DNA of 64,000 nt from an uncultured Phycisphaerales bacterium (GCA_963718665.1 OY970359.1:2240001-2304000), one strand, 5' to 3'. Counted from the stretch's first letter, positions 46,695 to 64,000 are shown. Program-made: numbers and translations. The notes: generated by a model from the letters alone, not told the origin.

Positions 46695-46698
46695 TATT

Positions 46699-48015
46699 TT
46701 AATTCTCAAATTTTTTGAGTATGACAGCGGCGGTTTGTCCGCCGTAGGTGTAGCCGCAGCACAGGGCGTAGTGAATATTCGCCTTTTGTGCCGTTGTTAC
46801 GATATTGAGATTGCAGCCGACAGCTTTTTTAACGCAGTTTTTCGCTGCTGGTATAATGCCGTCTCTCATCGCTAAAACTGTCGCGACAACATCAAGTCCG
46901 CCGCAGGCAGCGCCGGTATTGCTGAGCATACTCTTCGTAGGCCACACGGGTATTCGTTTCATCTCTTCGCCGATTGCCGACTCAATTCCTTTCGCCTCGG
47001 CGAGGTCATCCTGTAGAATACCAGTGCCGTGCGGTATTATCAAATCGATATCTTTTGGCGATATGTTCGCTTGCGAGAGCGCCTTTTCAATCGCTATCGT
47101 TAATCCATATCCATCCGGCTCGATATGCTCATACACCGAGTTAATGCAGGCGCTTTGACCTGTGCCGATCACTTCTGCGTAAATTTTTGTGCCGTGTCTG
47201 GTCGCGTTATCGAGATTTTCAAGCACGACGATTCCGCAGCCGTCGCCGAATATCGAGCCGGTTGCTCCTGAATCAAAAGGTCTGCATGCTCCTTCGGCAT
47301 CGTCGTTGTGCTGATTGGTAGTCCGTTTAATTAAGCACTGGCGCATTATCAATACGGGGTTCACTTTCGATTCCGCACCGCCTGCCAGTGCGATGTCACT
47401 ACTGCCCCGTGCGATGACCTCTGTCGCCTCGGCTATCGCGATATGTCCCGAAACTTCTGCGCAGGTGATTGTGTTGCTCGGCCCCTGTATGTCGTGAATG
47501 ATACCGACGTGGCAGGCCAGCATATTCGGCAAATACTTCAACAGCCACAGGGGCGTTACCAAGTCGAGACCATCTTTGCCCCATTTTTGAATGTCGAATT
47601 TGCCGTCGGACAAGCTTTTGGCGACAGCCGGTGCGAGCTCGCAGGGGTCGCAGCTAATCAATCCTGCGCCGATATTGATTGCCATACGCTGCGGATTGAC
47701 GTTAATTTTCTGCTCGTCGATGGCTTTTGTAATTAAGCCGCTATCCCTGACCGCCTCATCCGCGGCGATTACCGCAAGCTCAATATCCTTCGACATCAGC
47801 TTGGTCGCCTTGCGGAATGATTTGGGGACATACTGCTGGATTTTGTATTCCTCGACCTCGCCCGCCAACTGGCAGGTAAATTTCGCGGGGTCGAATTTCG
47901 TTATGCGTTTTATACCTGATTTGCCCGCGCAAAGTCCCTCCCATGTCCGGGCCGATGTCAACCCCAGCGGGCTTACCGCTCCAATTCCTGTTATCACCAC
48001 ACGGGTCCGTCCCAC
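46699..48015 (-). CDS. Ketosynthase-like protein lacking catalytic residues (chain-length-factor-like)
   Basis: KS fold (RVVITGIG, RPFD, PHGTG), but GPSNTITCAEVSG places Glu at the catalytic Cys position and TKSMLSN has Asn for the second His. Confidence 0.8.
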   Translation of the reverse strand: MGRTRVVITGIGAVSPLGLTSARTWEGLCAGKSGIKRITKFDPAKFTCQLAGEVEEYKIQQYVPKSFRKATKLMSKDIELAVIAADEAVRDSGLITKAIDEQKINVNPQRMAINIGAGLISCDPCELAPAVAKSLSDGKFDIQKWGKDGLDLVTPLWLLKYLPNMLACHVGIIHDIQGPSNTITCAEVSGHIAIAEATEVIARGSSDIALAGGAESKVNPVLIMRQCLIKRTTNQHNDDAEGACRPFDSGATGSIFGDGCGIVVLENLDNATRHGTKIYAEVIGTGQSACINSVYEHIEPDGYGLTIAIEKALSQANISPKDIDLIIPHGTGILQDDLAEAKGIESAIGEEMKRIPVWPTKSMLSNTGAACGGLDVVATVLAMRDGIIPAAKNCVKKAVGCNLNIVTTAQKANIHYALCCGYTYGGQTAAVILKKFEN

Positions 48016-48027
48016 AGGGTTTGTCTC

Positions 48028-48507
48028 CTATTTGTCGGCTTTCTGGAAAACCGCTCCCTGCAGAAGCGATTTGAACATATCGGTGAACACAAAGTTCTCC
48101 TTCGGGAATTCTTTGCCCGCAAGGTTCTGGTCGATATGACTGAACATCAGGTCGATGTCGGCTATCGGTTTGTCGCCGCATGTGATTGTTCCGGTTGTGC
48201 TGGCGGCTTCAGGGGCTATCAACTCAATCTTCGCAGATAACCTCAAAGTATCACCCGGCCTGACGTAATCGTGGAAAACCGCCTTTTTTATCTTCGCCAG
48301 TATGACCTTTTCCTGGAAATTTTTCGCTTCGCCCACCAGTATGCCGGCTGTCTGCGCCATTGCTTCAATCATCAGGCATTCGGGCATAACGGGAAAGCCG
48401 GGGAAATGGTCGTGCAGATGCTCCTCGGCAAGCGTTACATTCTTTATCGAGACCGCACTCTCGCCGCTTTTGAACTCAACGAACTTATCTATCCAGATCC
48501 AACGCAT
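48028..48507 (-). CDS. FabZ/FabA-like hotdog dehydratase, variant
   Basis: IDK, KNVTLAE, DHFPGFPVMPECLMIEAMAQ, VRPGDTL. Confidence 0.85.
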   Translation of the reverse strand: MRWIWIDKFVEFKSGESAVSIKNVTLAEEHLHDHFPGFPVMPECLMIEAMAQTAGILVGEAKNFQEKVILAKIKKAVFHDYVRPGDTLRLSAKIELIAPEAASTTGTITCGDKPIADIDLMFSHIDQNLAGKEFPKENFVFTDMFKSLLQGAVFQKADK

Positions 48508-48515
48508 AGCCCGGC

Positions 48516-48544
48516 ATAATAAGACAATTTCCCCGATTTCTCAA
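48516..48544 (-). promoter_or_regulatory. Putative sigma70 promoter TTGAGA-N17-TATTAT, near-leaderless
   Basis: The -10 hexamer lies 8 nt from the ATG at 48507; no SD. Confidence 0.5.
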
Positions 48545-48662
48545 GCAAATCTTTGTTAGCCGCTCCCTACGGTCAAGTTATGCACAAAAACAAGATTTGG
48601 AAGAAGCTGGGAGTATAGTAATCCGGGTTTTTGTGCAGAAACGGCCTCAAGGAAGATAAATC

Positions 48663-48691
48663 TTGACAGTTAAGGCCGATTTTCGTAAAAT
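48663..48691 (+). promoter_or_regulatory. Putative sigma70 promoter TTGACA-N17-TAAAAT for the GH9 gene
   Basis: Near-perfect consensus 145 nt upstream of the ATG. Confidence 0.65.
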
Positions 48692-48836
48692 CATTGGTAT
48701 CACACCGGGTATCGCATGGGAAAAGTATGTTTTTTAGCCGTATAGGTGGGGTTTTTCAGTTCAGATATACCTTCCGCGGGAGCCAAAGCCGTTTACAACG
48801 AAAAGCAGTTAAAAAAACGCATAAAAGGGGCGGGTT

Positions 48837-51353
48837 ATGAAAAGAACAGCGTTAATCATTTCAGCTTTGTCATTAATAATTATTTCCACTGACGCATTCG
48901 CAGCCAAACTTGTCTGGCTCAAAGTTGTTGACAATAACTACATTATGGCCCAATTCAAAGACGGGGATGCATGTTTTTTAGACAATGCGCAGGGGCAATA
49001 TGCCTATATGGGTGATCATTTCTCGGGTTGGGATTGGGTGGTGAGTTACGGAAGCGCACTGAACTTAACAAATGCCACCGCGACCGCTAACTGGGTCATA
49101 ACATCAGCCAGTGATGCGAATTACGGCTCAACCGGCCTGAATCCGACAAACTGCTATCGTAAATCAAAACTCAATGGTGCGTCTGAAGGTAACTGGGGCA
49201 GCTACGACTGGATTTATACATATACCATGGAACACAATATTTATTTGAAATTGCCATATTCTCTTGTGCAGGGGGATAGCTATACCGTTACAATAAATGC
49301 AAATACAAATTCCGACACGCTGAGCCCGAACATTACTTTCGATATGTTCAACAGCCCATCGGAGGCGGTGCATGTAAATCTGGTTGGATATCTTAACGAT
49401 GCCAGCACAAAAGCCGTCGATTTGTATATCTGGATGGGAGACGGCGGCGCGCGTGACTACTCGTCGTTTGTCGGTAAAAAGGTTTATATATACAACGTAA
49501 ATACCGGCGCCAGCCAGCAGGTGGGAACTGTTGCGCTTTGGAAAAACAGCGGCTCGGACGTAGGAGGTTATAACCTTACGATGTCAAATGTCTGGAAAGC
49601 TGATTTTACCGGCTTTAATACTCCGGGGACATACCGCATCGCAATAGAAGGAGTGGGGTGCAGCGAAAATTTCGAGATTAAAAAATACGCTTATTTTGAG
49701 CCGTTCAGGGTCAGTACAATCGGCTATTTTTATATGCGTATCGGCCAGGAAACTAATTATCCCGGGATGCCCGTTCCCCGCCAGCCCCTTTTTATTCCCG
49801 GTGTATCGCCGGCAAGTACGATAGTTTATATAACTAATATGTCACCTCTTAACTCGAGCTGGAGTGATGGTTTTTGGGACAATCCATCCGCAATAGCCCC
49901 TTATGTGACAGGCGCCCAGAACAACAACGCCTATGGGGGACACTCCGATGCAACGGACTGGGACAGGAATCAGGGGCATATTTCAAACATTTATGACATG
50001 CTGCTGCCCTATTTTCTTACCGACGGCAATTTGAATGATGATAACCTGCAAATAGCTGAAAGCGGCAACGGCATTCCTGATATCCTGGATGAAGCAAGAA
50101 ACGAGGTTGATTTCTGGCTTAACTTGCGCGATGGAAACGGATACAGTTACGGACTTACTAATCCTACCAGCGAAACCACTCCGATTCTTTACCAGGCGGG
50201 AACCACGCCGATATCAGCATGGGCAAGTGCCGCAAACGCGGCAATGCTGGCTAATTGCTTTATGCTCGCGGGATTGAATGATTTGAGGGATACGTACACA
50301 AATGCCGCAGTAACAGCTTACAATTACGCCTCAAACCTGCCCGACCAGATGCTTAGTACAACGCTGGGTATCGGTGATGTAACAATCAGGGGCAAAGACC
50401 TGAAAATGACGGCTGCAGCGTTTCTCTACAATGTGACCGGAAATACCGCTTATGAAGACATGGTCAATTCACTGAGCGAAGTTACATCAAGCACCTCGAC
50501 GATATGTAATGATTCGAGTTATGATCAACTTTGGGCAACTGCCGCCTATCTCAAAACCAAACAAACTGTTCATTATCCGACTTTATTCAGCAATATGAAG
50601 GCATCCATTATTAATGAAGCTAAAAATCAGGAAGCAAATTATTCTAACTCCCGGCCAACGCGCAGGGCTACGGACAATAACACAGGATACTTTAAGACCG
50701 AACAGAACGTGCAAAGGTGTATAGTTGCCCATGCGGTTGCCGACAGTAATTCGGATAAAACATTATTCGAAAATGCGATGGTACTGGAAGCTGACTGGGA
50801 GCTTGGGCGCAATTCCATGAATAGGATTATAATGACTACCGCCTGTACTAACCTGGCAAGCAAGCGAAGTATTGAAAATATGTACACTACCGGCAGAAAT
50901 GACGGCTACCCCGGTCTGCACCCCGGACATACACCCTATTTGAATACCGACGACTGGGATTCTTCGAGTACAGGTATGACTGGGAATAAGCCGAGCAGGT
51001 TGACTGCTCTATGTTACCCCGCTTACGGGACGACGTCCACTACCGGCTGGCCGAAAGCGGAAGGTTATTTCAATGATAGATATGTATGGGCCCATTCGGA
51101 ATTTACGCCGCAACAGACGATGCGGGGCAAAGCGGCCCTCTACGGCTATTTGTATGGTTTATATAAACTACGCGCTGATTTTGACGGCGATTCAAACGTG
51201 GACATGGCGGATTTGGCTGTCTTTGCCAGTTCCTGGTTAAAAGTCCCCGGCAATGCGGGCTACGATTCGCGTGCAAATCTTTACGTGGATTCGTCCGGCA
51301 TAGTGGACTTGCGTGATTTTGCTGTCTTCGCGAATGAATGGGGCGGAAACTAG
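48837..51353 (+). CDS. Secreted GH9 glycoside hydrolase with N-terminal Ig-like domain and C-terminal dockerin-like repeats
   Basis: Signal peptide; VHVNLVGY, ADFTGFNTPGTYRI, GGHSDATDWD, ESGNGIPDILDEA, HSEFT; C-terminal ADFDGDSNVDMADLAVFA..W duplicated motif. Confidence 0.85.
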   Translation: MKRTALIISALSLIIISTDAFAAKLVWLKVVDNNYIMAQFKDGDACFLDNAQGQYAYMGDHFSGWDWVVSYGSALNLTNATATANWVITSASDANYGSTGLNPTNCYRKSKLNGASEGNWGSYDWIYTYTMEHNIYLKLPYSLVQGDSYTVTINANTNSDTLSPNITFDMFNSPSEAVHVNLVGYLNDASTKAVDLYIWMGDGGARDYSSFVGKKVYIYNVNTGASQQVGTVALWKNSGSDVGGYNLTMSNVWKADFTGFNTPGTYRIAIEGVGCSENFEIKKYAYFEPFRVSTIGYFYMRIGQETNYPGMPVPRQPLFIPGVSPASTIVYITNMSPLNSSWSDGFWDNPSAIAPYVTGAQNNNAYGGHSDATDWDRNQGHISNIYDMLLPYFLTDGNLNDDNLQIAESGNGIPDILDEARNEVDFWLNLRDGNGYSYGLTNPTSETTPILYQAGTTPISAWASAANAAMLANCFMLAGLNDLRDTYTNAAVTAYNYASNLPDQMLSTTLGIGDVTIRGKDLKMTAAAFLYNVTGNTAYEDMVNSLSEVTSSTSTICNDSSYDQLWATAAYLKTKQTVHYPTLFSNMKASIINEAKNQEANYSNSRPTRRATDNNTGYFKTEQNVQRCIVAHAVADSNSDKTLFENAMVLEADWELGRNSMNRIIMTTACTNLASKRSIENMYTTGRNDGYPGLHPGHTPYLNTDDWDSSSTGMTGNKPSRLTALCYPAYGTTSTTGWPKAEGYFNDRYVWAHSEFTPQQTMRGKAALYGYLYGLYKLRADFDGDSNVDMADLAVFASSWLKVPGNAGYDSRANLYVDSSGIVDLRDFAVFANEWGGN

Positions 51354-51515
51354 GGACAGATATCTATTGTTAATATTGTGCTTTTGCGCAGCCCTACAGC
51401 GTCTTGTTTTGCGTAGCGAAGCAATGACGTTTTGCGATTTGCTTATAATTAAGACAATCGGCAGGATTGCTCAGGCAAAACCTGCCGATAAGGTTCAAAA
51501 ACAAGTGTTTACGTA

Positions 51516-51911
51516 TTAAGCTGCCTTCAGCTTGCTCTGGACGTAGTTGACAATCATACCCACTGTGAACAAATCGGGTAATTTGCTCAGTTCCGGGTTT
51601 TTCGCGAATTCGCTGACGTCGGTATGCGGCATTTTGGCCTTTAGTTCAGCGACGCCCTTGGCGGTCAGTTTGCCGTTACTTACAAACTCGGGGTTATTCA
51701 TCAGCGTTTCTGCAGGGAACAATTCTTCTCTTGCGATTTTAATTCCGAATGCCTTTTCCAGGCGGAACACTATATCGAGAAAATCGATACTCTCCGCTCC
51801 CAGGTCGCCCATCAGCGTTGCTTCGGGCTTTACCTCGTCGTCATCGACTCCGAGGGCGTCAACCATCACTGTCTTAACCTGTTCCAAAACCTGCTCTCTG
51901 TCCATAGCCAT
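51516..51911 (-). CDS. Enlarged acyl carrier protein (131 aa)
   Basis: DLGAESIDFLDIVFRLEKAFGIKI phosphopantetheine-site motif; about 40-50 aa insertion before the final TV..IV.YV helix. Confidence 0.88.
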   Translation of the reverse strand: MAMDREQVLEQVKTVMVDALGVDDDEVKPEATLMGDLGAESIDFLDIVFRLEKAFGIKIAREELFPAETLMNNPEFVSNGKLTAKGVAELKAKMPHTDVSEFAKNPELSKLPDLFTVGMIVNYVQSKLKAA

Positions 51912-51936
51912 ATCAACTTATCTCCTAACTGTTGCT

Positions 51937-52404
51937 TTATTTCTTCAGCAATTGCCAGCGTTTTTTCATCTCGCTGATAATGTTGGCATCTACCGCCGCT
52001 AAACCCGAATCGTTTTCGGCGAGATTAAAATGTCTAAGGCCGAATCGGGCCTCGACAATCTGTTCGCCGTTTGATACGCCTGTGCCCGTGAAACTGCTTA
52101 CGTTCTCCTCGATAGTTTTTGCCTCAACCGAGTATTCTATCTGCATTCCAGGCGCCAGAAAGGACTTATATTTAACATTTCTGGCCTCTTCGAGCAAGAC
52201 CATACTATGCGCAAAGTTTTCCGTCGTCCGAACCAGCCACGACGCTGACTCGATGAGTCCTTCGAGTAGCAATACCCCCGGCAGCACTGGGAAGGTCGGG
52301 AAGTGGTCCGCCAGATATTCTTCCGCCAGCGAGACGCTTTTGACCGCCTTTATCCGTTTGCCCGGCTCTATCTCAACAATTTTATCAATCAGTATAAACC
52401 GCAT
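51937..52404 (-). CDS. fabZ: FabZ-like 3-hydroxyacyl-ACP dehydratase
   Basis: FILIDKI, DHFPTFPVLPGVLLLEG. Confidence 0.85.
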   Translation of the reverse strand: MRFILIDKIVEIEPGKRIKAVKSVSLAEEYLADHFPTFPVLPGVLLLEGLIESASWLVRTTENFAHSMVLLEEARNVKYKSFLAPGMQIEYSVEAKTIEENVSSFTGTGVSNGEQIVEARFGLRHFNLAENDSGLAAVDANIISEMKKRWQLLKK

Positions 52405-54540: not shown

Positions 54541-54822
54541 TCATTTTGTTGTCCGTCGCATACTTTTCGCACAAGCATTCCCTGCTCTTATAATTATCGG
54601 AAACAAATGTTAGGGGAATGTTTATATGGTGTTAATTGCGGGTTAACTTGTTGGCTTTAGGCGGGATTGACCTGCGATTAACGATATTCGCCGCCCAGCC
54701 GCTACAGACCGCTTAAAATGAAACTGCGAATATGACCTCAAGATTTTCCCGACATTTTTTGCTTTGAGATTACGGTATTGAACTCTGGAAACGTTTTCGA
54801 AGTATGTTATACTTATTTAATT

Positions 54823-55302
54823 ATGAAAGTTCGCAGTGCAAATGTTACTGATGTAAAGGCCATACACGCCCTGATAAATTGTTTTGCGGAGCGTGACCAG
54901 ATGCTGTTTCGCTCGATGGCCGATATCTTCACAAATCTCCAGACCTTTCTTGTTGTTGAACTCGATGGTCAGGTCATCGGCTGCTGCGCACTTGAGGTAA
55001 TCTGGTCGGACCTTGCGGAGATAAAATCATTGGCTGTTCACGAGTCGTATCAGGGCAAAGGAGCGGGGGCGATGCTCGTAAACGCTGCGGTTGAGCAGGC
55101 GCGTCGGCTGGGAGCGCCTAAAGTATTCGGCCTGACTCTCAGGCCGGAGTTCTTTGGCAAACTTGGCTTCCAGGCGGTCAACAAGGATTCATTGCCAATG
55201 AAGGTCTGGAGCGATTGTGCCCGCTGCACGAAACAGCAAAACTGCGACGAAACAGCCGTGGTTAAGCTTATTGAGGGAAGCAGTTGTCCTATTCGACAGT
55301 AG
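54823..55302 (+). CDS. argA: Short ArgA-type GNAT N-acetyltransferase
   Basis: LAEIKSLAV, QGKGAG, VFGLT, LPMKVWSDC..C....CDE. Confidence 0.75.
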   Translation: MKVRSANVTDVKAIHALINCFAERDQMLFRSMADIFTNLQTFLVVELDGQVIGCCALEVIWSDLAEIKSLAVHESYQGKGAGAMLVNAAVEQARRLGAPKVFGLTLRPEFFGKLGFQAVNKDSLPMKVWSDCARCTKQQNCDETAVVKLIEGSSCPIRQ

Positions 55303-55306
55303 GACG

Positions 55307-56269
55307 TCAGCCGACTTGTCTTCGCTGGAATAACGCCACCGCCAGTGCTAATATACCTCCCGCATAGCAAATCGCGTATATAGCGGTAATCAGCACATAT
55401 TTGATGGGCAGTGTGCTTCCCTCAACAATAGCGTCGCTTATCCAGAAGACCTGAAGATTAGGAATGGCGAAATAGCATATTTTTGCCCAGAGGTGGGTTT
55501 TGGCGAGGGCACCGAAAGCCCAGTCAGAGACAAGGCCCAGAAGGAAGACGCCTACGCAGGCCGAGAGAGTTACCACGATATTGAACCGGCAGGACAGGGC
55601 TACCGCTAATGCCGCGATTATAACCGCCGCCAGAAAGAGCAGAACCGAGCCATAAGTATCAACCGCGTTAATATTGTTATTAGCAGGGTTGAACTTCCAG
55701 TCGCGGTCGAAGAAAATCAGGAAAATCAGCGCAATTGTGCCCAGGCCAGCCAGTAAAACCATAGCTGTTGAGGTGGCCTTCCAGTCATAAGTATAGTTAA
55801 AGAAAGCAGTTAGAAGGCAGGTAAGAACGAGAATGGTCCCTCCGGCTGCTAATACGGTATAGTCGTTGTTGGAATCAACGTTTTCCAGAACGCCGTTCCT
55901 TATCGCCATTATCAGTGCTAAGGTACAGATGTAATGGGCCATAGCGACAGCCCCGGTAACTCCCAGGAATTTGGCTAAAATAAATATGGGACGTTGCACG
56001 GGCTTGCTTAAAACGGTCATAATGGTTTTATTCTCGATTTCCTCCGCCACAGCCCCTGAAGCGGAGAAAATTGCTATGAACAAGCTTGCTATGAAAAGCG
56101 TAGATAAGCCCAATTCGCGCAAAAGCTTATTGTCGTCATCCAGTGTGTACATCGAGATTGCCGGACTGACGAAAAACAGCAGCAGGGCGGCGATGATAAT
56201 TATCGCATAGACCGGCTGGCGTATGGTTTCTATGAAGGTATTTTTTGCTATTGTAAATAACTTTGTCAT
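55307..56269 (-). CDS. ABC-2-type transporter permease
   Basis: IAKNTFIETIRQP, EIENKTIMTVLSKPVQR..FILAKFLG, PNLQ.FW, FQRRQVG. Confidence 0.85.
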   Translation of the reverse strand: MTKLFTIAKNTFIETIRQPVYAIIIIAALLLFFVSPAISMYTLDDDNKLLRELGLSTLFIASLFIAIFSASGAVAEEIENKTIMTVLSKPVQRPIFILAKFLGVTGAVAMAHYICTLALIMAIRNGVLENVDSNNDYTVLAAGGTILVLTCLLTAFFNYTYDWKATSTAMVLLAGLGTIALIFLIFFDRDWKFNPANNNINAVDTYGSVLLFLAAVIIAALAVALSCRFNIVVTLSACVGVFLLGLVSDWAFGALAKTHLWAKICYFAIPNLQVFWISDAIVEGSTLPIKYVLITAIYAICYAGGILALAVALFQRRQVG

Positions 56270-56454
56270 TCTCAACGACCTTTCTGGAAATCACGGTTTT
56301 TCAACGTCTTTTGAGTTTTAGGCAAGGTTTTTTGCCTAATTTTGGCGATATATTCTTATATGTTATAAAAACCGGCTTGTAAATAGCCGGGAAATACTAT
56401 ATCTATATGCCCTTTGCTTTTAGGGGTTCGTTAGAAACTTTAGGAATTTGATAA

Positions 56455-58518
56455 ATGACAACATCATCAAGACCGGCAAAGCTTGCTGCAATTGTGTCGC
56501 TGATAATCAGCGTCATCTTCTTTGTCATTACGATTCTTATCGGCAGATGGAGCGGTTTTGTATCCGTCTATTCAGAGAGTTTTGTTCCGCTTGGTTCGGC
56601 TTTAATCTGGCTGGTTTTGCTTATCCAGTTCCATCAGCGAGCCCTTGCCGAGCAGGAAAAGCTCGATATGAGCGAGCTTGTCGGCGAACACAGGGCAGAT
56701 AAAATCTTTCAGCAGAAAGGCGAGCAGGCACAGCTGTTCGCAGTCGCCCAAAAGCGTCTTGCGATACTTGAAAGGTGGTTCCTGCCGATTTTCTCATTTC
56801 TTATCGCCGCCTATCAGGCGGCCATAGGCCTGTATCTGCTCAGGGGTGTTTCGGATTCGAACCCGGCTATCGGCCAACAGCCGCTGTTGTGCGCGGTTTG
56901 TATGGTCGCCATTGCGTTTGTGAGTTTTCTGATGTCGCGTTACGCGACCGGGATGTCAAGGCGGCCGGAATGGAAACCGTTGCGGGCGGGAGGTAGTTTC
57001 CTGCTCAGCTCGGCGATTTTGTCATTTGCACTGGCGATAGCGCTTGCGCTGGTTCAGTTTAAATTAATCACCGTAATCAGGGTGATTGACTATTTGATTC
57101 CAATCCTGCTTATCATCCTTGGCGTCGAGAATCTGCTTAACGTTATATTTGATATCTATCGTCCTCGCCTGACTGGTCAATACAGCAGGGCGGCGTTTGA
57201 CAGCCGGCTGCTTGGGCTGGTCAACGAACCGGGCGAAATACTTCATACTGCCACAGGCGCAATCGATTATCAATTCGGATTCAAAGTTTCCCAGACATGG
57301 TTTTACAAACTTCTCGAAAAAGCCGTTGTGCCACTCTTTTTCTTCGGCGCTATTACGCTGTATCTGCTTAGCTGCGTCATCGTTATTAATCCGAATGAAC
57401 AGGGGGTAATCGAACACTTCGGTAATCCTAAAGACGCCAAAGGCAATGTCTGGCTGGTCGGCCCGGGCATCCATTTCAAAAGGCCCTGGCCTATTGATAT
57501 CGTTCGAATATACCCCACGAGCGATATAAAGGAACTGCAAATCGGCTACGTGCCGAAAACAGACCCCAAAACAGGGCAGATAATTCGCGAACCGTTGCTA
57601 TGGGGCAAGGACCATTACAAGGAAGAATACAACATCCTTGTTGCGAGCCGTCTCGGCACGGAGAAAAGTTCGCAGGGGGCGGTGCCGGTAAGTTTGCTCA
57701 AGGCAAATATCCCCGTGCATTACTGTGTCAAAGATATTTACGCGTTTCTTTATAACTATGACAATCCGGAGAGGCGACTCGAAGATATATGTTACCGCGA
57801 ACTTGCGAGGTTTGCCGCGAGCTCAACTATTGAGGTTGACGATGAGGTTGCTTTGCAGACCAGCTTGCTTGGCGCAGGCAGGTCACAGGCCAAGCAGGTT
57901 CTGACGCAAAATATCCAGGCAGCCGCTGACAAGGCGGGTCTTGGGGTCGAGATTGTTTTTGTGGGCCTGCAGGGGATACATCCGCCTACACAGGTTGCCG
58001 CCGACTATGAAAAGGTTATAGGCGCGATTCAGAAAAAACAGGCGATAATTCTCCGGGCGGAGGGGGAGCGCAATCTTACCCTTAGCACGCTGGCCGGTTC
58101 GGTCGAGGGGGCATCCGACCTTTACGTTCTGGCATCGGATTATCAAAAGGCAAGGCAGGAAAATAACCGCCAGCAGACCGATGAGATTGCCGGCCGGCTG
58201 GATAAGGCGTTTGGCCAGGCGGACGGCGATATATTCTGCATGCTGCGGGAGGCCCAGAGTTACAGGTTTGAAAAGGCGACTATCGCCCGCGCCACCGGCG
58301 AACGCTTCGACAGCCAGGTAAAAGCATACAGGGCTGCGCCGGAAATTTACAAACGCCAGCAGCGTCTTATCGCGCTGGAGGAAACGCTCAAACCAATCAG
58401 GAAATATGTTATTGTCGCCGACCCGAATGACGCGGAGACATTTATTGTTGACCTTAAGGAAAAATTAACGCCGAGTTTGTATGACATCGGCGGTGTTCAG
58501 GAGAGCAGTTCACAATGA
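56455..58518 (+). CDS. Multi-TM SPFH protein (HflK-like) with N-terminal membrane domain
   Basis: About 7-8 TM helices, then GVIEHFG...PGIHFKRPWPID SPFH core, IHPP.QVA..YE.V..A and YRAAPEIYK coiled-coil region. Confidence 0.82.
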   Translation: MTTSSRPAKLAAIVSLIISVIFFVITILIGRWSGFVSVYSESFVPLGSALIWLVLLIQFHQRALAEQEKLDMSELVGEHRADKIFQQKGEQAQLFAVAQKRLAILERWFLPIFSFLIAAYQAAIGLYLLRGVSDSNPAIGQQPLLCAVCMVAIAFVSFLMSRYATGMSRRPEWKPLRAGGSFLLSSAILSFALAIALALVQFKLITVIRVIDYLIPILLIILGVENLLNVIFDIYRPRLTGQYSRAAFDSRLLGLVNEPGEILHTATGAIDYQFGFKVSQTWFYKLLEKAVVPLFFFGAITLYLLSCVIVINPNEQGVIEHFGNPKDAKGNVWLVGPGIHFKRPWPIDIVRIYPTSDIKELQIGYVPKTDPKTGQIIREPLLWGKDHYKEEYNILVASRLGTEKSSQGAVPVSLLKANIPVHYCVKDIYAFLYNYDNPERRLEDICYRELARFAASSTIEVDDEVALQTSLLGAGRSQAKQVLTQNIQAAADKAGLGVEIVFVGLQGIHPPTQVAADYEKVIGAIQKKQAIILRAEGERNLTLSTLAGSVEGASDLYVLASDYQKARQENNRQQTDEIAGRLDKAFGQADGDIFCMLREAQSYRFEKATIARATGERFDSQVKAYRAAPEIYKRQQRLIALEETLKPIRKYVIVADPNDAETFIVDLKEKLTPSLYDIGGVQESSSQ

Positions 58519-59408
58519 AAAATATAACAATAACCATCTTTATCGTTCTGCTTTTTGTCATTTTGGCTCTTGTATTCACGATGTTCCAGGTGCGAGAGAC
58601 CGAATCGGCACTGGTGATGACCTTCGGCAAGGCCACGCGGCAGATAACCGAGCCGGGTTTGTATTTCAAATGGCCTCCGCCAATCGAAATGGTTCAGAAG
58701 TTCGATTCGCGGTCGAGGGGTCTTGTGGCTGAGATAGGCGAGACGCCCACGAAAGGGGCGGTGCCGATTATTGTCAACACGTTTATCGTCTGGCGTGTTG
58801 CCGAGCCGCTTGCGTTTTTTAACGCGGTCGGGACCATTTCGGAAGCCGAGAACAAGCTGATTACCCAGATAAGCGACACTCAGAACAAGGTAATAGGCAG
58901 GCACGATTTCTCCGAATTTGTCAACAGCGACCCTACAAAAATAAAGCTCGATGAAATCGAAAAGGAGATGTTGGCTGAGATTCAGAAGGCCGTGCGAAGC
59001 GACTATGGGATTGAAATCAAGGCGATTGGCATCAGGCAGCTTAAAATCAGCGAAGACGTCAGCAAGGACGTGTTTGAGCGGATGAGGGCTGAGCGGAATC
59101 GCAGGACCGAGGCGACAATTGCCGAGGGCAATGCCGCATCCAAGAAAATTGTTACGGACGCTCTTTCAATGCAGACCGAGCTGCTCGCGGCCGCTGAGGC
59201 CAGGGCCAAGGCCATTCGCGCACAGGGCGACGCCGAGGCCGCCCAGTATTATAAGCTGCTCGAACAGGACCCGCAGCTTGCTATGTTCCTGCGTGATATC
59301 GATGCGCTCAAAAAGATACTCGAACAAAGAGCGACGGTTGTTATAAGCGCGGATACCGAGCCGTTCAAACTGCTCAGGCAGATGCCGGACCTGAAACCGA
59401 AAGAATAA
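58515..59408 (+). CDS. hflC: HflC-like SPFH protein
   Basis: FQVRETE, EPGLYFKWP, VFERMRAER, AQGDAEAA; ATGA overlap with the upstream gene. Confidence 0.82.
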   Translation: MKNITITIFIVLLFVILALVFTMFQVRETESALVMTFGKATRQITEPGLYFKWPPPIEMVQKFDSRSRGLVAEIGETPTKGAVPIIVNTFIVWRVAEPLAFFNAVGTISEAENKLITQISDTQNKVIGRHDFSEFVNSDPTKIKLDEIEKEMLAEIQKAVRSDYGIEIKAIGIRQLKISEDVSKDVFERMRAERNRRTEATIAEGNAASKKIVTDALSMQTELLAAAEARAKAIRAQGDAEAAQYYKLLEQDPQLAMFLRDIDALKKILEQRATVVISADTEPFKLLRQMPDLKPKE

Positions 59409-59441
59409 TTGCTGTTTGTTTCATAGGCGGATTTGAAAGAT

Positions 59442-60749
59442 ATGACGGAAGAACACGGACACCATCACGAGCACGAACATAATCACGCGACCCCGGATGA
59501 CGCAGGCCAGGTGCGGCAGGCGGACCCCGGCTATGACTACCTGTCGGGGGCGTTGAAGGTCAGTTTCGCCGTTCTCAAGGTCATAATGGTCATACTGGTG
59601 ATACTGTTTTTGTTTTCCGGTATCCGGACGGTAGGGCCGGGCGAACGAGCGATTGTTCTGCGGTTCGGCAAAATCAGCGGAGTCGGCGAGGCACGGCTTC
59701 TTGGTCCGGGATTGAAGCTGCTTTTGCCCTATCCGATTCACGAAATCGTTCGAGTTCCTGTCGAGAAAAAGGTTAACCTGGCAATCAATTCGTTCTGGTA
59801 TTATCAGAAACCCGGCGATGAGATGGGTGACGCGGCCAACCAAAAATCATACGCGTTGCCGACGCTTAATCCCCTTAGCGACGGCTATTGTTTGGTAAGG
59901 GGCGAAAAACAGGAGGGGGCCGCAGCCGTCTCCGAAGGCAGCGATTATAATATCCTTCACTGCAAGTGGGTTTTGACCTATCAGATTACCGATGCGGAAA
60001 GATTCTACAAGCACTGCTATGTGCAGGACGACCATCTTTCCGCCGGACAGAATTACTCGGACATCATTGAGCAAAATATAAACCCGATGCTGGAGAATGT
60101 TTTCTCCGACGCGGTTGTCGCAACAATGGTAAATTACACAATCGAAGAGGCAATGTTTGAAAAGGTGGCTTCGGTTACGGATAGGGTCAAGGAGCGTCTT
60201 CAAAACAAGCTCAACGCCTTAGACAGCGGCATTAAAGTTGTTTCGGTTCAAATCCGCGATATAACCTGGCCCAGGCAGGTAGGGGCTGCCTTCCAGGCGT
60301 CTTTAACCGCCACCCAGGATAAGCAAAAGGCAATCAGCGAGGCAAAGCTAAACGCGGAAAAGATTCTCAATGAGACCGGCGGCCCGATTGCCGGCGAGCT
60401 GCTTGCCTCTCTGCATGATAGTTCCTATGACAAACAAAAACAGGAGCAGTTGTGGGGACAGGTTGCCGGCAGGGCACAGGAACAAATAGCCGATTCACGC
60501 GGCTATCGGACAAAGGTCGTCGAGGACGCCAGAGCGAACGCCGAGTACCTGCAAAGGATACTTCCGGAATATCGAAAGTATCCCAAGCTTGTCATACAGA
60601 GGGTCTATCAGGACGCGATTGAGCAGGTTCTTCGCGACGCCGATGAGAAGACGGTAATTGAGCCCGCGCAGCACGGCAAAGCAACCGATGTCAGGGTTCT
60701 CATCAACAGGGACCCTGGGATAAAGCCGAAATCCGAACCCGGAAAATAA
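59442..60749 (+). CDS. hflK: HflK-like SPFH protein with His-rich N-terminus
   Basis: HGHHHEHEHNH, single TM, VLRFG...PGL....PYPI, P.QV..AF, EY.KYP. Confidence 0.78.
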   Translation: MTEEHGHHHEHEHNHATPDDAGQVRQADPGYDYLSGALKVSFAVLKVIMVILVILFLFSGIRTVGPGERAIVLRFGKISGVGEARLLGPGLKLLLPYPIHEIVRVPVEKKVNLAINSFWYYQKPGDEMGDAANQKSYALPTLNPLSDGYCLVRGEKQEGAAAVSEGSDYNILHCKWVLTYQITDAERFYKHCYVQDDHLSAGQNYSDIIEQNINPMLENVFSDAVVATMVNYTIEEAMFEKVASVTDRVKERLQNKLNALDSGIKVVSVQIRDITWPRQVGAAFQASLTATQDKQKAISEAKLNAEKILNETGGPIAGELLASLHDSSYDKQKQEQLWGQVAGRAQEQIADSRGYRTKVVEDARANAEYLQRILPEYRKYPKLVIQRVYQDAIEQVLRDADEKTVIEPAQHGKATDVRVLINRDPGIKPKSEPGK

Positions 60750-60778
60750 ACTTAGTGAGGAATCCTGAGAGATAAATA

Positions 60779-62713
60779 ATGGCCCACGAACATCTGCATT
60801 TTAAGGACGATATAGCAGTCGAGCATACGCACGGCAAACAGGTTCGCGTCAGTTTGGCGCTGCTGGGGACGCTGGCAGGGGGGACGCTGCTGCTAAGCCA
60901 CTATGTAAGCAAATGGTTTGTTTACGGCCCCGATGCCTTCCAGACCGAGATTCTCGCATTTGCGGGCGCAATCCTGCTTGGCTCGCCTATCATCTGGCAC
61001 GCAATTAAAAGTTTAGTGCACAAAGAAGCCCATATGGATGAGCTTGTGGCCCTTGCGATACTTGCCGCCATTGCCACGCGGCAATATCCTGCCGCCTGTG
61101 TAGTTGCGTTCTTTATGTTACTTAGCGAACTGGTCGAGAGCAGAACGGCCCTTGGTGCGAGGGCATCGATTGAATCGCTCATTAAACTCACCCCTCAAAA
61201 GGCAAATCAACTGCATCCCGACGGCAGCGAAACCGAAGTTATGGTCAGCCAGATTAAGCCAGGTGATATTGTTCGGGTAAGGCCCGGCGATAATATCCCG
61301 GTCGATGGCGACGTCGTAAAGGGTTTAAGCTCGGTCAATGAGGCCACAATTACCGGCGAATCGCTGCCCGTTGACAAAGTTCCCGGTATGCAGGTTTTCG
61401 CGGGCACAAGCAATCTTACGGGTGCTCTCGATATTACCGTTACCAAGGCGGGCAAAGATACCACCTTAGGCAAGGTCCAGTCGCTGATTTTGCAGGCCGA
61501 GCATACCAAGATACCGATTATGCGGATTATCGACCGCTATGTTAAATGGTACACCCCGACCGTTCTTATGATTGCAGGTATTGTCCTGTTCTTCACGGGC
61601 AATATCAACTATGCCATTACCATTCTTGTAATATCCTGTCCTTGTTCATTGATTTTGGCGACGCCCAGCGCGATGGTTGCGGCGATATCCGCTGCTGCCC
61701 GCCTTGGCATACTCGTCAAGAACGTTGCCGACCTCGAAGCCGCGGGCAAAATCACTGCGATGGTCTTCGACAAGACGGGAACCGTAACGACCGGCCGATT
61801 ATATGTAACGAAACTCACTCCTGCAAATGGCGTTGAGCCGTCAACACTGCTGTCGCTGGCTTCCTCCGCTGAAAAAATGAGCAAACATCCCGCGGCAAGA
61901 GCTTTGCTTGAGGTCGCCAAACAGGCAAATCTCATTTTGCCCGAAGTGGATAATTTTCAGGAAACACCCGGCAAAGGCGTTTCCGCCAAAGTAGCGGGCA
62001 GCAGGGTAATCGTCGGCAGAGATTCTTTCCTCAGGGAAAACCAGATTAATATGTCAAATGTTACTCTGCCGTCTCTGCACGAGGAGCAGGGTTTCAGCAC
62101 ACTTTTTGTTGCTTTGGACCATAATTGCATTGGGTGGATAGGCCTTCAGGATAAAACCAGGCCCGAAGCGAAGGAGGCCGTAGCAGACCTTTTCGCACTT
62201 GGCGTCAAACGTGTAACTATGCTCACGGGCGACAGGGACGAAGTCGCAGGGCGAGTCGCGGCAGAACTCGGCTGCACCGATTACAAGGCGCATTGCCTGC
62301 CCCAGGATAAACTGGCTATTGTGGAAAAAATCAAAAAAGACGGGCACACCGTCGTTGTCGTGGGCGACGGCATAAACGATGCCCCCGCGCTTGCCGCGGG
62401 CGACCTCGGCATAGCGATGGGAGCGGCCGGTTCCGACGTAGCAATCAACTCCGCCTCAATCGCGCTGTTGAGCGACGACCTCAAACGACTGCCCGCACTG
62501 GTACAGCTTTCACGCAGAACGCGTTTTGTTATCAACTCAAACCTTGCCTTTGGCGTCAGCTTTATAATCGTGGGCATATCGCTGTCGTTTTTGATTCTGC
62601 CGACAACGGCGGCGTTCCTGCATTTCGCAAGCTCTCTTGTCGTTGTCTTCAACAGCGCCCGCTTAGTTCGTCACGGCGAAGAACTTCAGCACCATACGGG
62701 TGATGCTGCGTAG
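60779..62713 (+). CDS. Heavy-metal translocating P1B-type ATPase
   Basis: TGES, SCPCSLILATP, DKTGT, SKHP, GDGINDAPAL. Confidence 0.93.
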   Translation: MAHEHLHFKDDIAVEHTHGKQVRVSLALLGTLAGGTLLLSHYVSKWFVYGPDAFQTEILAFAGAILLGSPIIWHAIKSLVHKEAHMDELVALAILAAIATRQYPAACVVAFFMLLSELVESRTALGARASIESLIKLTPQKANQLHPDGSETEVMVSQIKPGDIVRVRPGDNIPVDGDVVKGLSSVNEATITGESLPVDKVPGMQVFAGTSNLTGALDITVTKAGKDTTLGKVQSLILQAEHTKIPIMRIIDRYVKWYTPTVLMIAGIVLFFTGNINYAITILVISCPCSLILATPSAMVAAISAAARLGILVKNVADLEAAGKITAMVFDKTGTVTTGRLYVTKLTPANGVEPSTLLSLASSAEKMSKHPAARALLEVAKQANLILPEVDNFQETPGKGVSAKVAGSRVIVGRDSFLRENQINMSNVTLPSLHEEQGFSTLFVALDHNCIGWIGLQDKTRPEAKEAVADLFALGVKRVTMLTGDRDEVAGRVAAELGCTDYKAHCLPQDKLAIVEKIKKDGHTVVVVGDGINDAPALAAGDLGIAMGAAGSDVAINSASIALLSDDLKRLPALVQLSRRTRFVINSNLAFGVSFIIVGISLSFLILPTTAAFLHFASSLVVVFNSARLVRHGEELQHHTGDAA

Positions 62714-62751
62714 AATACCTATATACAGGCCTGACGGGATTAGCTGAAATT

Positions 62752-63963
62752 ATGGAATATGCGATTGAAACATTTTCTCTTACAAAGATTTTTTCCGACT
62801 GGTGGGGCCGCAGCAGGGTTATAGCCGTTGATGACCTTAATCTGAAGGTTCGCCCCAATGAGGTTTATGGTTTTCTCGGCCCTAACGGCTCAGGCAAAAC
62901 AACCACGCTCAAAATGCTCCTCGGGCTGCTTCATCCCACAAAAGGAAAGGCAATCGTTCTCGGGGGCGACGCCACCGACCCGCAAATCAATCGCAGAATC
63001 GGTTTTTTGCCTGAAGAGTCGTATCTTTATAAATACCTGACGGCCCGCGAAACGCTCGATTTTTACGGCCAGCTGTTCAAACTGCCCGCGAAAGTCCGCA
63101 GGATGCGTATCGAGGCGCTGCTGGATATGGTCGGCCTGAAGGCCGTCGCCAACAGGACCATCGGGACATTTTCAAAGGGTATGGCAAGAAGAATCGGTCT
63201 TGCCCAGGCCCTTATAAATGACCCTGAGCTGCTTATTCTCGATGAACCAACCACAGGCCTTGATCCCATCGGCACAAGACAAATCAAAGACCTTATCCTC
63301 GAACTCGCCAAACGCGGCAAGACGATTCTGCTTTGCAGTCACCTTCTTGCCGACGTCGAGGACGTATGTAACAGAATCGCGATTCTTTATGGTGGCAAGA
63401 TTCAGGCGGAAGGCGACGTCCGCGAATTGCTGCGGCACTCCGATAAGACCGAAATTCTGACCGGGCGTTTAAGTCCGGCGGTAATCGAGAAAATAAAGCA
63501 GACGCTTGCCGAAGAGCACGCGGAATACACCATCGGCTCGCCGATAGACAAGCTCGAAACGTTCTTTATCAATATTGTGGCCCGGGCACAACGGCAGGCC
63601 GTCCCGACAAGCGGTGCGGAGAGCAAGACGCAGATTAGCAATTTTCTTTCCGCCGGGATTAATGACCGTGCGAGCCGAGAAGCGATACTTAATCAGCTCG
63701 TTTCCGCCTCTGACGAGCGACCGGCTGTTACTGATACGCAGCAGGTCAAATCTCAACCGGCACCGTTGTCGCCGGCTGACGAAAATCTGCTCAAAGAGCT
63801 GACCGAACAGACCGATTCAAAACCGGTTGTTATCCAGCCGACACAAACCAAACCCGCGCCGGCGCAATCCGACCAGCCGAATAAGAGCGTTCTCGACGAA
63901 TTAACGGGCCGGTCTAATGCGGATACAAAGAACGCTCAATCCGGAGATTCCACAAATGCGTAG
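62752..63963 (+). CDS. ABC transporter ATP-binding protein with long C-terminal extension
   Basis: GPNGSGKTT, FSKGM, LILDEP, SH; low-complexity C-terminal ~100 aa. Confidence 0.9.
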   Translation: MEYAIETFSLTKIFSDWWGRSRVIAVDDLNLKVRPNEVYGFLGPNGSGKTTTLKMLLGLLHPTKGKAIVLGGDATDPQINRRIGFLPEESYLYKYLTARETLDFYGQLFKLPAKVRRMRIEALLDMVGLKAVANRTIGTFSKGMARRIGLAQALINDPELLILDEPTTGLDPIGTRQIKDLILELAKRGKTILLCSHLLADVEDVCNRIAILYGGKIQAEGDVRELLRHSDKTEILTGRLSPAVIEKIKQTLAEEHAEYTIGSPIDKLETFFINIVARAQRQAVPTSGAESKTQISNFLSAGINDRASREAILNQLVSASDERPAVTDTQQVKSQPAPLSPADENLLKELTEQTDSKPVVIQPTQTKPAPAQSDQPNKSVLDELTGRSNADTKNAQSGDSTNA

Positions 63964-64000
63964 CATCTGGGCCGTTGCTGTCAATATGATAAAGCAGGCC
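63956..64000 (+). CDS. Probable ABC permease, N-terminal fragment (runs off the window end)
   Basis: ATG at 63956 overlaps the upstream stop; MRSIWAVAVNMIKQA resembles the start of the permease at 55307-56269 (MTKLFTIAKNTFIET). Confidence 0.55.
   Translation, partial: MRSIWAVAVNMIKQA

Follow-up and report, generated by a model that had tools for sequence, protein, structure and literature searches.

An HflK/HflC-type SPFH trio linked to a P1B-type ATPase and an ABC module in a Phycisphaerales genome: a candidate cage for a metal transporter

We analyzed a 64,000-nucleotide stretch of DNA from an uncultured Phycisphaerales bacterium (GCA_963718665.1 OY970359.1:2240001-2304000; the whole stretch is called the window here), which carries at its end genes for three SPFH proteins (K1, C, and K2), a P1B-type ATPase (the pump), and an ABC transporter module. 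The genome is 2.6 Mb in size and 94.6% complete. Coordinates are window positions, and genes past the end of the window are given on the genome's own contig (G000 C1). The locus consists of the following features.

55307-56275, minus strand: permA, an ABC-2/GldF-like permease of 322 amino acids (aa) and second membrane subunit of the ABC module (Pfam ABC2_membrane_5, E value of 7e-7)
56276-56454, no strand: divergent intergenic region between permA and K1, with a conserved −35/−10-like pair and without a conserved palindrome
56455-58518, plus strand: K1, 687 aa, an HflK-type SPFH protein with an N-terminal six-helix CDF-fold domain (residues ∼1-245) whose zinc site is lost, ortholog of PA2439; the domain order is CDF fold, linker, transmembrane (TM) anchor, HflK-type SPFH domain, and coiled coil with a 43-aa helical insertion
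58515-59408, plus strand: C, 297 aa, an HflC-like subunit overlapping K1 by 4 nt, ortholog of PA2438
59433-60749, plus strand: K2, 438 aa, HflK-like, with a putatively cytoplasmic His tract and a 29-aa helical insertion, ortholog of PA2437; an alternative start is the ATG at 59442
60779-62713, plus strand: P1B-type ATPase, 644 aa, HmtA clade (TIGR01525, 555 bits)
62752-63963, plus strand: ABC ATPase, 403 aa, with a C-terminal tail of ∼110 aa containing short amphipathic repeats (Pfam ABC_tran)
63956-64000 in the window and on to G000 C1:2305333, plus strand: permB, a NosY-related ABC permease with a periplasmic insert
G000 C1:2305410-2307230, past the window: eighth gene, encoding a TPR-like alpha-solenoid of 606 aa with a single membrane anchor at its N terminus

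The original prediction, made from the sequence alone, had described seven of these genes as a tight operon with one divergently transcribed permease. All seven lie where it placed them and its domain calls hold, with Pfam finding Band_7 in K1, C, and K2, E1-E2 ATPase and HAD domains in the pump, ABC_tran in the ATPase, and an ABC-2 membrane domain in permA, on the minus strand. The plus-strand genes from K1 to permB are spaced by −4, 24, 29, 38, and −8 nt, and K2 begins with the predicted HGHHHEHEHNH motif. The operon is larger than had been stated, since the eighth gene lies beyond the window. An apparent frameshift in permB near C1:2304350 is an assembly error in an intact gene, because the contigs of all four sequencing runs checked (three studies) carry two extra bases there; one of these runs may be the source of the assembly, and low-share runs were left out. 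On the same grounds, we rejected permB as a pseudogene. In close relatives, permB is 465 to 475 aa long.

K1 has seven hydrophobic segments, in keeping with the extra N-terminal part of about seven helices ascribed to it earlier; the last one anchors the SPFH part, and the six others make up a bundle of the CDF fold. An AlphaFold2 (AF2) model of residues 1 to 312 had a predicted local distance difference test (pLDDT) value of 92. In structure comparison, the model gave Z scores of 15.9 to SLC30A10 (root mean square deviation of 2.9 over 179 residues) and 14.2 to ZnT3, with the first unrelated row at 10.9, and the top rows of a Foldseek search were all YiiP or ZnT, none of them at an E value of 0.001. 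A search of the ESM Atlas with residues 1 to 290 returned no usable match, and viral contigs contained no pattern match for K1. P0183, in which the CDF-HflK fusion is intact, aligns collinearly with the K1 profile over the full length, and hydrophobic or small residues occupy the CDF ligand columns (four in all) in K1. In the window protein, the ligand columns of TM2 and TM5 read V-P-L-G-S and F-L-L-S-S, so the CDF transport site is absent. Although the canonical metal site is gone, Glu225 in the sixth helix of the inactive domain (57127-57129) hardly varies: Glu stands at this position in 85 of 87 rows in one count and in 62 of 63 in another, with Asp in the remaining 2 and 1. Profile and model comparisons together indicate that K1 descends from a CDF-HflK fusion with a decayed metal site. 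Close homologs of K1 carry the label Sedimentisphaerales from their source.

The loss of the CDF site goes together with the presence of a pump. Among 56 full-length first genes of the trio from planctomycete loci, both HxxxD motifs were kept in 0 of 41 K1 proteins with a P1B-type ATPase in the locus, compared with 4 of 15 without one, and 2 more of these 15 were ArsP_1 permease fusions. The four genomes with an intact CDF domain (87 to 93% complete) gave no P1B match at an E value of 1e-40. The other nine genomes, in which the K1 site is lost and the fetched locus has no pump, all have a strong P1B match elsewhere, which is split in two in one of them. A search with the fused region of locus L070 returned 37 matches, comprising 30 P1B-SPFH, 2 ArsP_1-SPFH, 1 CDF-SPFH, and 4 others. 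This complementarity and the fusion counts suggest that one apparently live metal transporter, drawn from any of three families, accompanies the trio. As judged from these comparisons, each kind of trio seen carries either an intact CDF, ArsP, or P1B transporter fused to HflK or, next to the inactive CDF domain, a separate HmtA-type P1B-type ATPase.

In all three SPFH proteins, the TM anchor, SPFH domain, and coiled coil are homologous to those of HflK and HflC (Pfam, NCBIfam, and PDB matches), and the best PDB sequence match of both K1 and K2 is Escherichia coli HflK. We conclude from these matches that K1, C, and K2 are HflK/C homologs. They are divergent ones: K1 and K2 score 84.9 and 130.5 bits against a TIGR01933 cutoff of 159.4, and C scores 132.7 bits against a TIGR01932 cutoff of 134.4, compared with ∼220 to 290 bits for canonical planctomycete hflC. 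Helical insertions in the coiled coils of both HflK-like proteins, suspected from the start, are present within the coiled-coil stretches 57970-58280 in K1 (+43 residues) and 60270-60575 in K2 (+29 residues); between fixed anchor columns, K1 has 99 residues versus 56 in other K1 and fusion proteins, and K2 has 100 versus 71. The insertion point matches E. coli HflK at about residue 278. The two insertions co-occur, in a single subclade that takes in 22 of the 58 planctomycete rows of K1, and are absent from proteobacterial rows. We considered them as a mark of ABC linkage and rejected this, as 16 of 37 K1 proteins with ABC module genes in the locus have no insertion and locus L046 has the insertion without ABC genes.

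Genome G007 has two copies (L045 and L046); one has the ABC module and no insertions, and the other has insertions, no ABC genes, and an adjoining alkaline phosphatase gene. P0187 is an apparent single-chain HflC-HflK fusion whose tail looks frameshifted.

To survey the linkage, we searched 301 genomes of the phylum with K1. The search matched 120, many through the SPFH part alone, and 60 planctomycete regions were fetched around the best full-length matches, our own locus included. Many of these regions end at contig ends, and the hidden Markov models (HMMs) used for labeling were built from the same 60 loci. K1-C-K2 was found in 55 regions; within these 55, the P1B-type ATPase was present in 43, the ABC ATPase in 34, and the full set of eight genes in 24. 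The gene order varies, with the pump sometimes before permA and permA in either orientation. The proteobacterial survey covered the best 80 of 288 confirmed matches in named genomes; 77 of these loci had all four core genes (K1, C, K2, and the pump), and 3 were incomplete. The linkage is therefore widely conserved and not confined to this genome; confinement to it had been named as grounds for refuting the original prediction. Annotated regions in Paraburkholderia, Burkholderia, Klebsiella, and Rhizobium have the order HflK-HflC-SPFH-P1B, and the best plasmid matches of the window pump adjoin HflC-like genes. Each planctomycete HMM scored its own proteobacterial counterpart best (310 to 366 bits over nearly the full length for K1 and 292 to 309 bits for C).

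The original prediction knew of no functional description of this arrangement and had overlooked the hmtA locus of Pseudomonas aeruginosa. Statements on PMC4542158, PMC8531726, PMC11761036, PMC13086221, PMC8456098, PMC13685413, and PMC13220708 refer here to excerpts of these papers. We made the comparison through a Pseudomonas paraeruginosa locus (L198) and not through PAO1 sequences. The order in L198 is K1, C, K2, a 144-aa gene, the pump, and a 181-aa gene, which matches the published PA2439-PA2434 layout (PMC4542158, PMC8531726, PMC11761036, and PMC13086221). By sequence comparison, K1-C-K2-P1B is orthologous to this zinc starvation locus (PA2439-PA2435, including PaFlo5-7), and the core gene arrangement is therefore already in print. 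Zur binds the hmtA locus promoter, and transcripts and proteins increase under zinc depletion (PMC4542158, PMC8531726, and PMC11761036), the orthologous genes by 5.6- to 14.4-fold (PMC4542158, Table 2). The SPFH genes, named PaFlo5-7, have also been deleted (PMC13086221); the excerpts of that paper contain no mention of ATPase, hmtA, or copper and describe no metal stress experiment on the mutant. A literature search, with subscription papers and supplements outside its scope, found no paper tying the SPFH proteins to the pump or SPFH cages to metal transporter clients, and none that traces PA2439-type proteins back to a CDF ancestor or describes the eight-gene form.

Upstream of K1, an alignment of the window with six same-order relatives showed the conserved −35/−10-like pair. 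A promoter and terminator scan found no sigma-70 consensus site in 56276-56454, and a Zur-like half-site upstream of K1 was discarded as a candidate because it is not conserved among the same-order relatives. The genome has three Fur family genes.

The window pump is the only P1B-type ATPase found among the five P-type ATPases of the genome; the other four we take, from their motifs, to be of the KdpB, P3A, MgtA, and P2A types. It has CPC in TM4 and His615 and Asn625 in the last helix. In a FastTree tree of 80 pumps (row L143 left out, and with close kin that are not independent), module pumps and proteobacterial pumps formed one 60-row clade (Shimodaira-Hasegawa [SH] support, 99) that holds both the window pump and that of L198, while the SPFH-fused pumps formed a separate clade (SH support, 98). 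Since the fused pumps belong to a different clade, the P1B fusions serve as an analogy within the family. Column counts were 53 of 63 for CPC, 60 of 63 for the last-helix His, 63 of 63 for Asn, and 40 of 63 for HN; the window pump has HFASS at this place. His-rich termini had been predicted for the pump, and they are present in modest form in the window protein; they are not conserved, with an N-terminal tract in 7 and a C-terminal tract in 4 of 38 planctomycete orthologs. We also counted His tracts of the trio (at least 4 His in 15 residues, before the anchor): 17 of 52 planctomycete loci have one on K2, and 67 of 78 proteobacterial loci have one on C. The counts are rough because of start codon errors. 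By topology, these tracts would face the cytoplasm. A complex prediction for K1 (residues 1 to 312) and the pump (residues 15 to 636) with alignments gave a score of 0.14 and a mark of 0.32, which is no answer, and it is used neither for nor against any reading.

The TM4 motif of the pump drifts to TPC, LPC, CPS, CPG, or VPA in lineages among L037, L088, L089, L064, L036, L041, L047, L049, and L117-L119, and L047, L049, L118, and L119 have another residue in place of the last-helix His; these changes hint at an altered substrate or lost transport. Genome G001 has two module-type pumps (L116 and L120), both away from the trio.

The ABC ATPase, the two NosY/GldF-like permeases, and the TPR-like anchored protein make up, according to their distribution, a separate and more widespread module, for which we found no described function although it is common in Planctomycetota. 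Relatives of the anchored protein occur in 218 of the 301 genomes. We fetched 20 loci around this protein in genomes without a linked trio, and 17 had ABC-permB-anchor, 4 of them with permA (L101 and L104-L106). PermA resembles permB; the GldF model matches 5 of 27 permA family members, and the permA profile found no credible solved relative. The nearest solved relative of permB is NosY (E value of 4.9e-13 with the family profile), with the likeness located in the first 123 profile positions, the N-terminal part of permB, and shared by many ABC-2 permeases. The AF2 model of the anchored protein (pLDDT of 90.7) is almost all helical, and fold searches gave generic TPR and solenoid matches only (Z up to 10.5). 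There was no Pfam match, and the ESM Atlas returned hypothetical clusters only. The original prediction had joined the ABC transporter to the cage as an exporter with a periplasmic client; the ABC part is instead a separate module, and the candidate client looks, from its model, like a TPR adaptor and not like a metalloenzyme.

The C-terminal tail of the ABC ATPase offers a possible tie between module and trio. Past Walker B, the protein has at least 202 aa in 33 of 34 trio-linked loci, versus 120 to 164 aa in 17 of 17 unlinked loci. Four rows with a short tail fall at three positions within the long-tail part of the tree, and no K1 was found in the genomes they come from. An ATPase search of the phylum listed matches in 147 genomes; 44 matched into the tail, 43 of them with a linked-type K1, and among the 103 without a tail match, 2 have a linked-type K1, one of which is cut by a contig end. 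Both tail thresholds were chosen after the data had been seen, and the trees are FastTree only. As the thresholds are post hoc, close relatives are more readily matched in the tail, and related rows do not count as independent, the association of tail and trio is suggestive only.

Our preferred reading is that K1, C, and K2 would assemble at the periplasmic side of the inner membrane into a ring of the HflK/C type, dedicated to a transition-metal transporter, here the HmtA-type pump, instead of to FtsH. Such a three-subunit cage, with the pump held by the inactive CDF domain of K1 and fed by His tails, seems to us probable, if not strongly so, given the sequence and model comparisons. The CDF domain would tether or position the pump inside the ring, and the cytoplasmic His tails, on K2 here and on C in proteobacteria, may gather Zn2+ or Cu near it. 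The pump might then export metal into an enclosed periplasmic chamber, shielded from dilution, from which it would be passed to envelope proteins under metal scarcity. We lean toward outward delivery because the interchangeable partners are exporters and the ortholog is induced by zinc scarcity, and we do so hesitantly. In this lineage, the NosY-like ABC module and its TPR adaptor may be docked on the ring through the ATPase tail and act like NosDFY, as an ATP-driven handling station for a periplasmic recipient; the docking is likewise a tentative proposal. The earlier idea of a cage that organizes a metal pump is thus supported in part, as far as a metal transporter client is concerned, which is favored by the P1B-, CDF-, and ArsP-HflK fusions, the loss of the CDF site alongside a separate P1B-type ATPase, and the His tracts that shift between subunits; the inclusion of the ABC transporter as a part of the same unit was not supported in the form given.

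Several observations weigh against one or another part of this reading. The pump is unlinked, elsewhere in the genome, in four ABC-linked trio loci (L040, L052, L053, and L055), and the fused P1B proteins lie outside the clade of the window pump. The ABC module occurs across Planctomycetota mostly without the trio, and permA, permB, and the anchor gene were found in none of the best 80 proteobacterial loci. The tail rule has exceptions, as L060 and G015 are short though trio linked and G164 is long without a K1 match. No conserved palindrome or regulator box was found among the seven same-order upstream regions. In P. aeruginosa, one study saw no repression of hmtA mRNA when zinc was added (PMC8531726), deletion of PaFlo5-7 gave only weak phenotypes in standard media (PMC13086221), and HmtA is described in a review as importing Cu and Zn (PMC8456098), contrary to outward delivery. 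Finally, the trio could serve FtsH in this organism, because the genome has one ftsH gene and no other HflK/C-like pair was found in it.

The strongest rival grants that cage and pump are a real unit and takes the ABC module as a mere neighbor, an HmtA-type cassette having been inserted once into a phylum-wide permA/ABC-permB-TPR operon and co-inherited since. The module lacks the trio in all 17 of the 20 anchor-centered loci that contain its ATPase, L105 and L106 have the window layout minus K1-C-K2-P1B, splits are seen in G038, G180, and G008, and the absence from the proteobacterial loci also agrees with this view. However, the linkage outlasts several rearrangements, among them the pump moved upstream of permA and the ABC genes staying with the trio after the pump has left; the ATPase tail is lost at three separate places in the tree where the trio is lost; and 43 of the 44 tail-match genomes have a linked-type K1. 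We regard this rival as rather unlikely.

Less probable still is that the trio is an alternative HflK/C that continues to work with FtsH, the CDF domain and His tails making it a metal-sensitive adaptor that shields the pump or ABC permeases from the protease or delivers them to it. The original prediction called the system FtsH independent, noting that neither ftsH nor hflX is in the window. The window does lack ftsH, and one copy lies elsewhere, at C1:1788611, ∼0.5 Mb away; hflX was not searched genome-wide. A separate canonical hflKC locus was not found in the genome, in which the trio is the only HflK/C-like set detected, next to one other SPFH gene; some further genomes likewise have just the trio. 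Canonical gammaproteobacterial hflKC is not known to lie beside ftsH. It adjoins hfq and hflX (PMC13086221), and the missing ftsH neighbor, from which independence cannot be read, thus says little; ftsH occurs in 1 of 140 loci. Further points in favor of an FtsH partner are that K1 and K2 have E. coli HflK as their nearest relative of known structure, that FtsH is a zinc metalloprotease (PMC13086221), and that the P. aeruginosa authors name the genes HflK/HflC, as FtsH interactors (PMC4542158 and PMC11761036). On the other hand, canonical hflC coexists with the trio in many genomes (e.g., G259, G286, G245, G107, and G278), which argues for a separate job of the trio; negatives of the TIGR01932 search are soft, as at an E value of 1e-20 it missed C of our own genome. 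Moreover, the pyocyanin and swimming changes of an hflKC mutant were not seen in a paFlo5-7 mutant, as far as the excerpts of PMC13086221 report, and fusion to three unrelated metal transporters is more simply explained as client attachment.

A metal uptake device, equally improbable in our view, would have the same anatomy and the opposite direction: the cage would gather periplasmic Zn or Cu, the HmtA-type pump would import it, and the cytoplasmic His tails would receive the ion. CDF transporters are exporters, and the interchangeable partner SO_0444/ArsP is annotated as one; these facts count against uptake, as does the genome itself, with two ABC-3 permease genes and no other P1B-type ATPase. 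For uptake speak the description of HmtA as an importer, induction and Zur binding under zinc limitation (PMC4542158 and PMC8531726), the ABC-3 (ZnuB/MntB-type) permeases that L041 and L072 have next to the module, and, in Paraburkholderia, a metal ABC operon close to it. Very improbable is a membrane-bound metal store like ferrosomes (FezB, P1B-6) or mycobacterial effluxosomes (PacL with CtpC/G/V) with the SPFH proteins as a scaffold, since, despite the precedent of P1B pumps with dedicated membrane scaffolds (10.1101/2020.01.10.902569 and PMC13460109) and an HN-containing last helix in 40 of 63 orthologs that resembles the P1B-6 HNxxT, the P1B-6 SCA is absent and CPC present in 53 of 63, the trio consists of HflK/C homologs with no Fez or PacL likeness noted, and SPFH proteins are unmentioned in both papers.

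The metal transporter cage that we prefer would offer an explanation for the unexplained SPFH genes in the zinc starvation hmtA operon of P. aeruginosa. Which clients SPFH cages have besides AAA+ proteases is an open question, and in this family the clients are defined genetically, some even by covalent linkage, and come from three transporter families that are unrelated, which makes the question testable by pull-down and cryo-electron microscopy. More doubtful is the generalization to a second widespread class of HflK/C-type cages with a metal transporter client, a sealed periplasmic chamber over the CDF, ArsP, or P1B exit, and, in Phycisphaerae and related planctomycetes, an ATP-driven NosY-like ABC machine with its TPR adaptor docked through the ATPase tail, so that eight proteins would make up one station for loading metal into envelope proteins.

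Apart from synteny among kin, no further conserved neighbors were found in the fetched planctomycete loci. An ArgA-like GNAT acetyltransferase gene (54778-55302, plus strand) converges on permA with a 4-nt gap and also adjoins permA in L084, L086, and L087, probably as synteny among kin. A neighbor scan of 65 open reading frames (63 of 108 neighbors plus 2 from L198) found as metal-related products ABC-3 permeases (two loci) and, in one locus each, ArsP_1, alkaline phosphatase, M28 and M23 peptidases, metallophosphoesterase, ribosomal S14, and a DksA zinc finger; most other frames were unrelated or unnamed. In L041 (3037-6451) and L051, the module ends after the ABC ATPase and is followed by a ZnuC/ZnuB-type ATPase and ABC-3 permease, and the anchor gene of this family lies elsewhere (L102). 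Upstream in the window, 45372-52404 (minus strand) holds a type II fatty-acid-like cluster with two ketosynthases, two FabZ-like dehydratases, and an acyl carrier protein, names that we presume from motifs in the translations; it is broken by an opposite-strand gene for an 838-aa secreted glycoside hydrolase-like protein (48837-51353). Beyond the window, at G000 C1:2317099-2318660, a 299-aa nucleotidyltransferase-like gene is followed by one for a 229-aa two-TM protein, a pair that we take to resemble a CBASS cyclase and a Cap15-type effector.

Compared with known systems, K1 residues ∼1 to 245 share the six-helix membrane fold of the CDF transporters YiiP, ZnT, and SLC30A10, but the HxxxD ligands of TM2 and TM5 are lost, and a linker and SPFH domain stand in place of the cytoplasmic C-terminal domain. 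P1B-2 ATPases (ZntA/CadA) have a Lys in TM5 and an Asp in TM6. The window pump has neither, with His at 615 and no Lys among the counted TM5 columns, and shares the CPC of TM4 with them (PMC13460109); it also differs from P1B-6 (FezB), which has SCA in TM4 and HNxxT in TM6 (10.1101/2020.01.10.902569). Effluxosomes (PacL-Ctp) and ferrosomes (FezB) have P1B pumps organized by dedicated membrane partners, as proposed here, with unrelated scaffolds and different P1B motifs (PMC13460109 and 10.1101/2020.01.10.902569). NosDFY, which hands copper from NosL to nitrous oxide reductase, is a precedent for ATP-driven periplasmic metal handover and, like the window module, combines an ABC ATPase, permeases, and a large periplasmic partner (PMC13685413); the window module has two different permeases, a TPR-like solenoid instead of the beta-helix NosD, and no nosZ or nosL in the locus.

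The trio has the SPFH domain, coiled coil, and N-terminal anchor of E. coli HflK/HflC-FtsH (PDB 7VHP, 7WI3, 9CZ1/2, and 9PAW), in which HflK/C form a 24-subunit closed or open cage around FtsH and membrane clients (PMC13220708). Unlike that pair, it has three subunits, the CDF-fold domain of K1, and a transporter linkage, so that in place of a two-gene hflK-hflC unit, with or without hfq-hflX, three SPFH genes are followed by transporters. The closest counterpart is the hmtA locus (PaFlo5, PaFlo6, PaFlo7, PA2436, HmtA, and PA2434), with which the window shares the HflK-HflC-HflK-P1B order, K1 homology over the full length including the membrane domain, the pump clade (SH support, 99), and His tails. 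In contrast to the hmtA locus, the window lacks counterparts of PA2436 and PA2434 and a conserved regulator box, and it has the four-gene ABC module, the insertions in K1 and K2, and a His tract on K2 rather than on C.

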